Positions 10,781-11,568 of a stretch of DNA of 38,138 nucleotides are shown piece after piece. The notes beneath the pieces are model-generated. The model ran no database searches. It worked only from the letters and a program-made list of their open reading frames with translations, and was not told where the DNA came from. Each line of letters begins with the position of its first letter. Position 1 is the stretch's first letter. Made by a program: the position numbers and the translations under genes. The DNA lies in the NCBI GenBank assembly GCA_943325145.2, contig CALPOI020000001.1:1-38138 (forward strand), in the 5' to 3' direction. The DNA is from Candidatus Planktophila lacus (GTDB taxonomy: Bacteria; Bacteroidota; Bacteroidia; Flavobacteriales_D; Crocinitomicaceae).

Positions 10781-10856
10781 TGCGGGGTGGAGCAGTTGGT
10801 AGCTCGTCGGGCTCATAACCCGAAGGTCGTCCGTTCGAGTCGGGCCCCCGCTACCA
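10781..10856 (+). tRNA. initiator tRNA-Met (CAT anticodon), CCA encoded
   Basis: Folded by hand as a 76-nt cloverleaf. The acceptor is GCGGGG/CCCCGC with an unpaired U1:U72. The D stem is GAGC/GCTC with A11:U24. The anticodon stem ends in three G-C pairs (GGG/CCC) around the loop CTCATAA. The T arm is GTCCG-TTCGAGT-CGGGC. It is near-identical to E. coli tRNA-fMet through the D, anticodon and variable regions (from memory). Confidence 0.93.
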
Positions 10857-10860
10857 AGGT

Positions 10861-10895
10861 AAAGGAATCTAGAAATAGGTTCCTTTTTTGTTTTT
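10861..10895 (+). terminator. intrinsic terminator of tRNA-fMet (copy 1)
   Basis: 9-bp stem aaaggaatc/ggttccttt with one U-G pair, loop tagaaata, then TTTTTTGTTTTT. Confidence 0.75.
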
Positions 10896-10898
10896 AAG

Positions 10899-11159
10899 AT
10901 GTTTGTAACTTACGTTTTATATTCGGAAAAATTCAATCAGTTGTATATTGGTTATACTTCAGATTTAATGAATCGTTTTCATTCTCACAACTCTTTTGCC
11001 ACTAAAGGACACACAATTAAATACAGACCATGGATTGTTGCTTATGTAGAATTTCATGAAACAAAAAATCAAGCTTTAACAAGAGAAAAACAACTCAAAT
11101 CTTCAAGAGGTAGAAATTTCTGCAGGGAACAGATTCTCGGGCTCATATCCGTCAGGTGA
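10899..11159 (+). CDS. GIY-YIG nuclease family protein (small YhbQ/COG2827-like), copy A
   Basis: 86 aa with TYVLYS...LYIGYT (the GIY...YIG pair), then NRFHSH, then REKQLKSSRGR, as in small URI-domain proteins. The ATG lies 3 nt after the terminator T tract. The last 8 codons run through tRNA-derived sequence. Confidence 0.85.
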   Translation: MFVTYVLYSEKFNQLYIGYTSDLMNRFHSHNSFATKGHTIKYRPWIVAYVEFHETKNQALTREKQLKSSRGRNFCREQILGLISVR

Positions 11160-11192
11160 CGGACGTCCGTTCGAGTCGGACCCCCGCTACCA
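11137..11192 (+). pseudogene. partial tRNA-fMet copy A (nt 27-37 and 48-76, no 5' half)
   Basis: 11137-11147 equals tRNA nt 27-37 exactly (tcgggctcata). 11164-11192 equals nt 48-76 with one change, G64A, which turns the U50-G64 pair into U-A. In between, 16 nt (tccgtcaggtgacgga) replace the 10 nt acccgaaggt. There is no acceptor 5' strand or D arm. Confidence 0.85.
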
Positions 11193-11196
11193 AGGT

Positions 11197-11231
11197 AAAG
11201 GAACCTAGAAATAGGTTCCTTTTTTGTTTTT
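11197..11231 (+). terminator. terminator hairpin copy 2
   Basis: Stem aaaggaacc/ggttccttt, fully Watson-Crick, with the same loop and T tract as copy 1. Confidence 0.7.
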
Positions 11232-11234
11232 AAG

Positions 11235-11495
11235 ATGTTTGTAACTTACGTTTTATATTCGGAAAAATTCAATCAGTTGTATATTGGTTATACTTCAGAT
11301 TTAATGAATCGTTTTCATTCTCACAAATCTTTTGCCACTAAAGGACACACAATTAAATACAGACCATGGATTGTTGCTTATGTAGAATTTCATGAAACAA
11401 AAAATCAAGCTTTAACAAGAGAAAAACAACTCAAATCTTCAAGAGGTAGAAAGTTCTGCAGGGAACAGATTCTCGGGCTCATATCCGTCAGGTGA
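11235..11495 (+). CDS. GIY-YIG nuclease family protein, copy B
   Basis: Identical to copy A apart from two nucleotide changes: aac to aaa at codon 31 and aat to aag at codon 73. Both give Asn to Lys. Confidence 0.85.
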   Translation: MFVTYVLYSEKFNQLYIGYTSDLMNRFHSHKSFATKGHTIKYRPWIVAYVEFHETKNQALTREKQLKSSRGRKFCREQILGLISVR

Positions 11496-11528
11496 CGGAC
11501 GTCCGTTCGAGTCGGGCCCCCGCTACCA
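11473..11528 (+). pseudogene. partial tRNA-fMet copy B (nt 27-37 and 48-76)
   Basis: Same architecture as copy A. Its nt 48-76 segment is identical to the functional tRNA. Confidence 0.85.
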
Positions 11529-11532
11529 AGGT

Positions 11533-11568
11533 AAAGGAATCTAAAAATAGATTCCTTTTTTTTGTTTT
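11533..11568 (+). terminator. terminator hairpin copy 3
   Basis: Stem aaaggaatc/gattccttt, where the variable pair is now U-A. Loop taaaaata, then TTTTTTTTGTTTT. Confidence 0.7.

Follow-up and report, generated by a model that had tools for sequence, protein, structure and literature searches.

The 38,138-nucleotide stretch of contig CALPOI020000001.1 analyzed here (Candidatus Planktophila lacus, GTDB family Crocinitomicaceae of the Bacteroidota), hereafter the window, carries an initiator tRNA gene followed by two tandem units, each of which combines the 3′ part of the tRNA with a terminator and an open reading frame (ORF) for an 86-aa GIY-YIG protein. The locus belongs to a large family of chromosomal nuclease cassettes associated with tRNA genes, which is found in hundreds of Bacteroidota genomes. 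We lean, with modest confidence, towards the interpretation that the cassette expands and contracts through recombination between its tRNA-derived repeats and behaves as a self-maintaining 'accordion', either selfish or domesticated.

Organization of the tRNA-nuclease array

The intact initiator tRNA-Met(CAT) gene is located at 10781–10856 on the forward strand, with the CCA encoded. ARAGORN and Rfam (tRNA model, 59.8 bits) agree on this assignment, as proposed in a first-pass annotation of the sequence, and neither calls a further tRNA gene in the window. The tRNA displays A11:U24, an anticodon stem with three G-C pairs (GGG/CCC) and a 1:72 mismatch, which we take to be the marks of a bacterial initiator. 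Tandem Repeats Finder delimits a 336-bp period between 10828 and 11569 (2.2 copies, 97% matches), in agreement with the head-to-tail units described in the annotation. Its inventory of each unit (tRNA nt 48–76, terminator and a 261-nt ORF) was likewise recovered when the repeats, the hairpins and the PF01541 matches were located, and the T arm, the acceptor 3′ strand, the CCA and the terminator occur three times in a register at 10828, 11164 and 11500.

All elements of the array lie on the forward strand. Terminator hairpin 1 (10861–10886), an 11-bp stem followed by a T-run, ends 12 nt before the ATG of ORF copy 1 (10899–11159), the final codons of which cross a pseudo-tRNA, with the TGA placed inside a second hairpin termed H1. 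Terminator hairpin 2 (11197–11222, with T-run) precedes ORF copy 2 (11235–11495), which encodes a protein of the same 86-aa length that differs from the first by N31K and N73K. The array closes with terminator hairpin 3 (11533–11558), of variant sequence and also with a T-run. The two units had been recognized previously, but a fourth, truncated and older unit at 11677–11747 was overlooked; it has kept a hairpin resembling a terminator and the initial 32 nt of the ORF, followed by a deletion (90% identity). This remnant is kept in all the alleles described below, including the one devoid of cassettes.

Hairpin H1 and the pseudo-tRNA

The first-pass annotation had noted an 11-nt copy of tRNA nt 27–37 (TCGGGCTCATA) at the end of each ORF. 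The copy is exact in both units (11137–11147 and 11473–11483), but the pseudo-tRNA to which it belongs, and the conserved hairpin within it, had been missed. Directly 3′ of the copy, each unit has the 16-nt hairpin H1, TCCGTCAGGTGACGGA, with arms TCCGTC and GACGGA around an AGGT loop (11148–11163 and 11484–11499), for which 0.04 matches are expected by chance in the window. H1 is followed by the segment equivalent to tRNA nt 48–76, which comprises the T arm, the acceptor 3′ strand and the CCA, and is 97% identical to the tRNA in the first unit (11164–11192) and 100% identical in the second (11500–11528). Because H1 substitutes tRNA nt 38–47, that is, the anticodon-stem 3′ strand and the variable loop, each unit closes with a 5′-truncated, hairpin-marked pseudo-tRNA, which in the window lacks nt 1–26.

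The same architecture is conserved in the family. An exact ATA/TCC junction (ATATCC) is present in 90 of 109 cassettes and continues as TCCGYC-N4-GRCGGA-C, the T arm and the acceptor 3′ strand. The outer TCCG/CGGA of the H1 alignment was fixed by the search pattern; it is near-invariant also in a pattern-free listing, and the four outer base pairs are invariant even though synonymous sites are saturated. The two inner pairs, which are free of such selection, display 38 double (compensatory) changes versus 2 broken cells among 61 distinct elements, and the consensus fold computed by RNAalifold, which is independent of these pair counts, consists of H1 plus the T arm. The T arm and acceptor strand of the pseudo-tRNA are identical to those of the local tRNA in 51 of 90 copies, with a mean of 2.7 mismatches versus 8.2 to the tRNAs of other loci. 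Large deviations are mostly due to extra hairpins or truncations, and well-paired foreign T arms were found at loci L052 (8 mismatches) and L069 (4 mismatches). Since the flanks of H1 track the local tRNA and yet H1 persists, we infer from the alignments that H1 is under selection. Moreover, 38 of the 97 H1 variants form a perfect palindrome of 16 nt centered on AGCT, a symmetry that suggests a role of H1 at the DNA level.

The end of the ORF enters tRNA nt 27–37 in the window, and nt 6–37 or nt 20–37 in other lineages. The stop codon varies accordingly by lineage, being a TGA in H1 or a TAG in the D loop or D stem, and the conserved C-termini (GLISVS, GFISA, FGSSDG) therefore reflect nucleotide conservation of tRNA-like DNA and not selection on the protein. 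One of the two acceptor strands, 5′ or 3′, is missing from all pseudo-tRNA fragments examined (a degraded 3′ strand is kept in L193), so that none of them can form a normal acceptor stem.

These features also bear on an alternative in which the pseudo-tRNA is the product of the system and acts as RNA, whether as a decoy or antidote for a tRNA enzyme, as a processing or stability signal of the nuclease mRNA, or as the RNA partner of the protein in an arrangement resembling type III toxin-antitoxin systems. In the case of a decoy or antidote, the enzyme in question would act on the tRNA at the anticodon stem or the variable loop. The consensus RNA fold with its compensatory changes fits this proposal, and the transcript 11122–11232 folds far better than shuffled sequence (z = −4.1). 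The order of structured RNA, terminator and nuclease gene resembles ToxIN-type loci, and ORF-less pseudo-tRNAs exist, among them arrays located 5′ of the tRNA. In prokaryotes, the fusion of an Slx1-like domain with a TrmH-type tRNA methyltransferase has been interpreted as a sign that such domains may act on RNA (PMC1564403). By contrast, an RNA hairpin does not need the DNA symmetry of the perfect palindromes, and no fragment examined can build a normal acceptor stem. In Rfam 15 only the intact tRNA was matched, and the pseudo-tRNA and the hairpin gave no match up to E = 10 save chance hits; nor did PADLOC return a meaningful match. GIY-YIG enzymes are, to our knowledge, DNA nucleases. We consider an RNA-level function quite unlikely.

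Two further candidates arising from the hairpin searches were discarded. In the lineage of the window, the H1 3′ arm or the anticodon 5′ strand can alternatively pair with the T-stem 5′ strand, which we treat as a coincidence because this pairing is not upheld in other lineages. Some pattern matches correspond to real 3′ ends of transfer-messenger RNA (tmRNA), which are unrelated to H1 because their TCCG sits in a loop.

Other hairpin-bearing tRNA fragments were observed in the fetched DNA. Related palindromes (TCCCGA...TCGGGA and TCAGTC...GACTGA) are almost confined, within the 1.16 Mb retrieved, to pseudo-tRNAs, where they occupy D or T loops. An identical 18-nt perfect palindrome, TCCCGATAGCTATCGGGA, sits in pseudo-tRNA T or D loops of L021, L048, L070 and L080 and is shared across the unrelated lineages Fluviicola, Chryseolinea and Mucilaginibacter; its arms are the initiator anticodon-stem strands in swapped order. 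Tandem arrays of 5′-type pseudo-tRNAs lie 5′ of the intact tRNA(CAT) gene in L016 (2520–2860), L052 (2600–2870) and L205 (3190–3400), and such arrays are also present in L050, L055, L195, L199, L230, L275 and L193. Their units contain the tRNA leader and the acceptor 5′ strand, have palindromic hairpins in place of the D arm and/or nt 38–47, and end in or after the T loop, with periods of 83, 90 and 107 bp. Mini-units composed only of pseudo-tRNA and terminator are repeated at a 102-bp period in at least three tandem copies in L019 (1–230), and occur also in L048 (2400–2500), indicating that the repeats can amplify without an ORF in cis. ARAGORN labels the seven pseudo-tRNAs of L031 (3245–5563) as tRNA-SeC(TCA); pseudo-tRNA arrays are likely a source of false selenocysteine-tRNA annotations.

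The GIY-YIG protein

Both 86-aa ORFs match the GIY-YIG family PF01541 (E = 6e-17). Residues Y5, Y16, G18, R26, H30 and E63 are invariant in 31 sequences and follow the canonical spacing of the GIY-YIG catalytic site. The median ratio of nonsynonymous to synonymous substitution rates is 0.09 over 25 pairs and, judged by this ratio, the protein is under strong purifying selection.

A profile search against the sequences of the PDB retrieved 1ywl (4e-6), 1zg2 (2e-4), At-HIGLE (1e-3) and Slx1 (8e-3), with no match to I-TevI or UvrC. The AlphaFold2 model (mean predicted local distance difference test score 90) displays the expected beta-beta-alpha-alpha-beta-alpha core, and a Foldseek search with this model gave the same ranking (UPF0213, At-HIGLE, Slx1), I-TevI and UvrC appearing only at E above 0.4. 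The catalytic domain plus one helix accounts for the whole 86-aa length, and no C-terminal DNA-binding module is present. On the grounds of profile and predicted fold, the protein is thus a single-domain nuclease of the UPF0213/SLX1 (YhbQ-like) lineage and not a modular homing enzyme. Sequence and model alike lack the DNA-binding domain of site-specific GIY-YIG homing enzymes, which speaks against homing, one of the two routes considered in the first-pass annotation. PADLOC returned only a weak match to UzuA (E = 0.0013) and no meaningful match to a defense system. Membership in a ToxIN-like type III toxin-antitoxin system was also considered and rejected, since the fold is that of GIY-YIG and not of ToxN/AbiQ.

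Distribution and host tRNAs of the cassette

The first-pass annotation was unaware of how widely the design is spread. The protein collection contains 358 close relatives, the named ones mostly from Bacteroidota (Fluviicola, Mucilaginibacter, Aquirufa), and a library of 50%-identity representatives contains 1,357 proteins with profile matches at E ≤ 1e-10. Among 599 candidate stretches listed from one-genome-per-species contigs, at least 580 loci encode relatives. Locus-level counts refer to the best 80 loci, which were fetched from these contigs. In 61 of the 80 an intact tRNA(CAT) gene lies upstream on the same strand, separated from the start codon by 33–81 nt in 54 cases; most of the remaining 19 are found where a contig stops or have the ORF preceded by a terminator and a tRNA 3′ end that is truncated or decayed. 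The association was also recovered from metagenome contigs by an anticodon-agnostic scan for H1 plus a T loop. Of the 120 loci returned, 35 contained 46 true hairpins with a CAT-type loop in front, and a GIY-YIG ORF was located directly 5′ of 27 of the 38 hairpins that could be assessed. None of the other pattern matches in that scan (coding DNA, tmRNA, ordinary tRNAs) had a GIY-YIG gene nearby.

The tRNA(CAT) hosts fall into two classes, namely the initiator and an elongator-type tRNA with C11:G24 (Met or Ile2, which the sequence does not distinguish), the latter found in Mucilaginibacter, Pedobacter and Gramella/Christiangramia. In each case the pseudo-tRNA matches the class of the local tRNA(CAT). 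Distant subfamilies were inspected through 11 representatives that returned DNA (P0064, P0084, P0253, P0241, P0263, P0186, P0200, P0238, P0171, P0153 and the protein of the window), and all of them have a tRNA gene or a tRNA-derived remnant beside the ORF. The host is tRNA-Phe(GAA) in L279, with the palindrome in the T loop of a pseudo-tRNA-Phe, and tRNA-Asn(GTT) in both L283 and L291, with H1 in place of the 5′ side of the D stem/anticodon stem in the former and within the T loop in the latter. Locus L287 uses another tRNA-Met, with H1 after the anticodon loop. The arrangement is mirrored at the tRNA-Lys(TTT) gene of L284, where a 5′-type pseudo-tRNA with H1 is followed by the ORF and then by the intact tRNA. 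Hairpin-bearing partial copies of the local tRNA were found in all five of these loci. In addition, L288 is a mixed array with pseudo-tRNAs of two types, and in L289, which has no tRNA gene nearby, tRNA 3′ ends bracket a cassette situated between transposase and serine-recombinase genes. Copies that lie immediately downstream of a tRNA gene and have part of that tRNA repeated behind them, as the first-pass annotation had anticipated, are therefore found at two kinds of tRNA(CAT), at tRNA-Phe, at tRNA-Asn and, in mirrored form, at tRNA-Lys. A tRNA or pseudo-tRNA context exists at every one of the representatives inspected; a single ancient linkage cannot explain this distribution, which implies repeated arrival at tRNA genes.

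These data can be set against a purely passive origin, in which a housekeeping YhbQ-like gene beside a tRNA was duplicated by unequal crossing-over and the partial tRNAs are functionless, decaying by-products. The units are indeed head-to-tail and 97–98% identical, the protein is YhbQ-like (UPF0213), and the E. coli tyrT/tyrV repeats, which include a tRNA 3′ end, arose without a mobile element. Nevertheless, the design recurs in hundreds of genomes and at no fewer than five tRNA types, the four outer pairs of H1 are invariant although synonymous sites are saturated, the hairpin is kept while its flanks stay identical to the local tRNA, and the pseudo-tRNA is already present at single-copy loci. 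Passive duplication, already contradicted by the comparative data, is in our view very unlikely.

Copy number and alleles

The fetched loci contain one to seven units, and 15 of them have two to seven units in tandem. The longest array, in a complete Mucilaginibacter chromosome (L031), consists of seven 373-bp units, one of them a pseudogene. Alleles of the window locus were compared in contigs whose Era protein is identical to that of the window, and the allele series at era/tRNA-fMet suggested for inspection in the first-pass annotation was found, with zero, one and two cassettes. The window has two units and L147 and L148 have one. L146 has one unit plus a truncated second, followed by an inserted ATPase gene. 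In L153, devoid of units, the tRNA and its terminator continue into the distal flank, where the old remnant is retained, and L155 has foreign DNA directly after the CCA. Such a series is the outcome expected from recombination between the 74-bp direct repeats. Together with the tRNA-linked relatives, it excludes a purely accidental local duplication; the assignment of the protein to the UPF0213/SLX1 lineage agrees with the YhbQ-like gene offered as an alternative in the annotation.

The array breaks short-read assemblies. Six of ten same-species contigs end inside the tRNA, its trailer or the first unit (L149–L154, 137–196 nt from era). A co-conversion gradient was sought and rejected, as the flank identity among the zero-, one- and two-copy alleles does not change towards the array and the glycosyltransferase side is simply more variable. 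Links to phages and plasmids were also discarded. The 65 matches of the hairpin pattern in viral contigs were all chance occurrences in coding DNA, without a nearby tRNA or GIY-YIG gene; no viral relatives were detected by protein profile, and PHROGs gave no match. The only two plasmid records retrieved, both from Neisseria gonorrhoeae, are chromosome-sized (~2.17 Mb), with 43% identity.

Proposed mechanism

In the interpretation that we favor, the unit combines a leaky terminator, a UPF0213/SLX1-type nuclease gene without a recognizable promoter of its own, and a hairpin-disabled partial tRNA. The nuclease gene would be transcribed from the tRNA promoter by read-through of the terminator, as suggested by the 12-nt gap between terminator and ATG and by the single TAnnTTTG motif upstream of the tRNA. 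TAnnTTTG is the Bacteroidota −7 promoter consensus, and the candidate box, TATCTTTG (10737–10744, forward strand, 37 nt 5′ of the tRNA), is the sole occurrence from 9779 to 12310; as the window shows no enrichment of the motif, this promoter evidence is weak. Units would be gained and lost through homologous recombination between the ~75-bp direct repeats formed by the tRNA 3′ part and the terminator. In the longer term, the cassette would have arrived at several tRNA isotypes, each time next to a partial duplication of the resident tRNA, so that a functional tRNA would be preserved. By analogy with phage T6 SegB, the nuclease and the hairpin probably act in the copy-number change: the nuclease may initiate recombination by cutting in or near tRNA-like or hairpin DNA, with H1 as the cis-acting site of the putative cut.

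Several observations weigh against this interpretation. The zero-, one- and two-copy alleles come from short-read metagenome assemblies, which are prone to repeat collapse, although collapse is unlikely for the zero-unit contig, which was assembled at k = 141, above the 74-bp repeat length. In a comparison of the window with L001, cassette and flanks are equally diverged (~93% identity in both), so that recent descent has been vertical. Searches of 2.9 million viral contigs and 72,556 plasmid records did not detect the family, leaving no known vehicle for horizontal spread. A neighbor-joining tree of the 78-aa core was too poorly resolved to count host-tRNA switches, and nearest-neighbor identities are ambiguous for Pedobacter and Arcticibacter. 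SLX1-type enzymes are structure-selective and not sequence-specific, no partner protein for an SLX1-type nuclease is evident, and the intact tRNA, a putative target, persists in the same genome.

The same set of data can be examined in terms of classical homing or insertion, in which the nuclease would cut a cassette-free tRNA gene and the cassette would be copied in together with a replacement tRNA 3′ end. Presence/absence alleles at one conserved site, cassettes at several tRNA isotypes and the mixed array of L288 are in line with this scheme, as is the cassette of L289, which is flanked by tRNA 3′ ends among mobile-element genes. The first-pass annotation proposed such a tRNA-targeting cassette with a replacement 3′ end. 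Its linkage to tRNA genes holds, but the identity of pseudo-tRNA and local tRNA in 51 of 90 copies suits target duplication or gene conversion no less well than an imported 3′ end; most copies match the local tRNA, and well-paired foreign T arms, which favor a replacement, are present in L052 and L069. Further points against homing are that the protein is restricted to a catalytic domain of the UPF0213/SLX1 lineage with much weaker matches to I-TevI, that the regenerated tRNA would still be a target, and that in the tRNA-Lys type the ORF is 5′ of the intact tRNA with the 5′ part duplicated. The lack of phage or plasmid copies in the collections searched and the vertical pattern of divergence between close relatives argue in the same direction, and we regard classical homing as unlikely.

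A more far-reaching version of the accordion interpretation is that the cassette represents a new class of minimal mobile or amplifiable element, with an SLX1-like nuclease as its sole enzyme and a palindrome (TCCG-N8-CGGA and related) in a disabled copy of the target tRNA as its cis site. Cleavage by the nuclease would occur at the extruded hairpin or in the loops of the tRNA gene, and host recombination would then insert, duplicate or delete units of ORF and pseudo-tRNA at many isotypes, without an integrase or a transposase. We put this forward tentatively and hold it to be rather doubtful.

Flanking regions and other insertions

The genes era and der, identified through their GTPase and KH domain families, are located 5′ of the tRNA on the opposite strand. 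A domain search of the ORFs within ~8 kb detected only housekeeping genes and no integrase, transposase or recombinase domain, which confirms the earlier statement on nearby integrases and transposases. Between the array and the old remnant, at 11587–11640, lies a 19-bp inverted repeat, AATTATTTACTTCCCATAA / TTGTGGGAAGTAAATAATT. In the same-species alleles L147 and L146 this stretch is swapped for sequences with GGATCAAAYCC..GAAAGTTGTGGG, and it may be a small insertion resembling a miniature inverted-repeat transposable element.

Insertions were also observed at related loci. The ATPase gene of L146 (AAA_14/DUF234) is inserted after 22 nt of the second cassette, ~600–2430 nt from era on the tRNA side. 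In L155, which belongs to the species of the window, the foreign DNA after the CCA encodes the C-terminus of a large serine recombinase (Zn_ribbon_recom). In L216, likewise from another strain of that species, a resolvase and a Type ISP restriction enzyme are encoded upstream of the cassette, and the junction contains the 3′ end of the tRNA repeated in imperfect form. The foreign DNA in L155 and L216 indicates that classical islands use the same tRNA. The Mucilaginibacter sp. cycad4 chromosome (L277, 2536–3608) has ~1 kb between tRNA-Met and the first of two cassettes; this insert contains an HTH_17 (excisionase-like) gene and a 186-aa ORF, and the first cassette has acquired a new N-terminus (MATEEEK...). 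Finally, an insert of ~1.5 kb in L073 (1300–2860) splits one cassette close to the 3′ end of its ORF; the two junctions share sequence (GGATCAAGACCAATTGTTGGGGACTAAGC...), and the insert is probably an insertion sequence element.

Comparison with known systems

The closest parallel is SegB of phage T6, a free-standing GIY-YIG endonuclease encoded in a tRNA gene cluster that cuts inside tRNA genes (PMC13096335). SegB drives the recombination-dependent tandem amplification of a unit of tRNA plus segB, which collapses without selection (PMC13096335). We read the motif at which it cuts, RAWTSGAAC, as complementary to the T-loop box of tRNA. In both systems the GIY-YIG gene adjoins tRNA genes, the tandem unit consists of tRNA sequence and nuclease gene, the 3′ end of the nuclease gene is joined to the 5′ region of a tRNA, and the copy number is unstable in the manner of an accordion. 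By contrast, SegB is a multi-domain homing enzyme in a phage genome, whereas the cassette protein is a single-domain member of the UPF0213/SLX1 lineage in bacterial chromosomes. The T6 unit carries a full-length working tRNA in each repeat; in the cassette only the first tRNA is intact and a truncated, hairpin-disabled copy is repeated. The conserved palindrome is present in the cassette and has not been described for T6, and the need of the nuclease for amplification, shown for SegB, would apply to the cassette by analogy. Seg-type homing endonuclease genes in general share with the cassette the presence/absence polymorphism at a conserved site, but their C-terminal DNA-binding module is not found in the 86-aa protein.

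A second comparison is offered by the E. coli tyrT/tyrV locus, where we checked that a 178-bp unit, repeated 3.1 times, lies immediately next to tyrV and overlaps with both tpr and rttR. As in the cassette, the repeat starts inside the tRNA 3′ end and contains a small ORF transcribed with the tRNA. This ORF encodes a 29-aa protamine-like peptide, whereas that of the cassette encodes a conserved enzyme.

Recombinase islands inserted at tRNA genes likewise leave the tRNA gene intact and are bracketed by direct repeats of its 3′ part, a pattern resembled by the three occurrences of tRNA nt 48–76 plus terminator in the window. Such islands encode a tyrosine or serine recombinase at one end, which neither the cassette nor the ORFs within ~8 kb do. 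Unlike the islands, the cassette is a 336-bp one-gene unit in tandem with a palindrome in the repeated tRNA part, and its family also displays duplications of the tRNA 5′ part on the 5′ side of the gene.

SLX1, At-HIGLE and UPF0213 proteins are the best profile and fold matches of the nuclease and share the GIY, YIG, Arg, His and Glu positions. In eukaryotes, SLX1 depends on SLX4 and contains a zinc finger as an additional domain, whereas the cassette protein is single-domain. The literature searched does not connect the UPF0213 proteins of bacteria with tRNA genes. Nor did we find a description of UPF0213-type cassettes carrying hairpin-marked pseudo-tRNAs in the searchable literature, most subscription journals being outside its coverage, and the arrangement apparently has not been described so far.

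For annotation and assembly the arrays call for caution, as they end many short-read contigs and give false tRNA calls such as the tRNA-SeC of L031. Many UPF0213/YhbQ-like nucleases have no known role, and the tRNA-gene setting provides a concrete functional context for them. The cassette could also represent a recombinase-free route for the insertion of DNA at tRNA genes. If the nuclease drives the change in copy number, nuclease-powered 'accordion' dynamics, demonstrated to date in one phage, would also operate on bacterial chromosomes, at tRNA loci that are essential.

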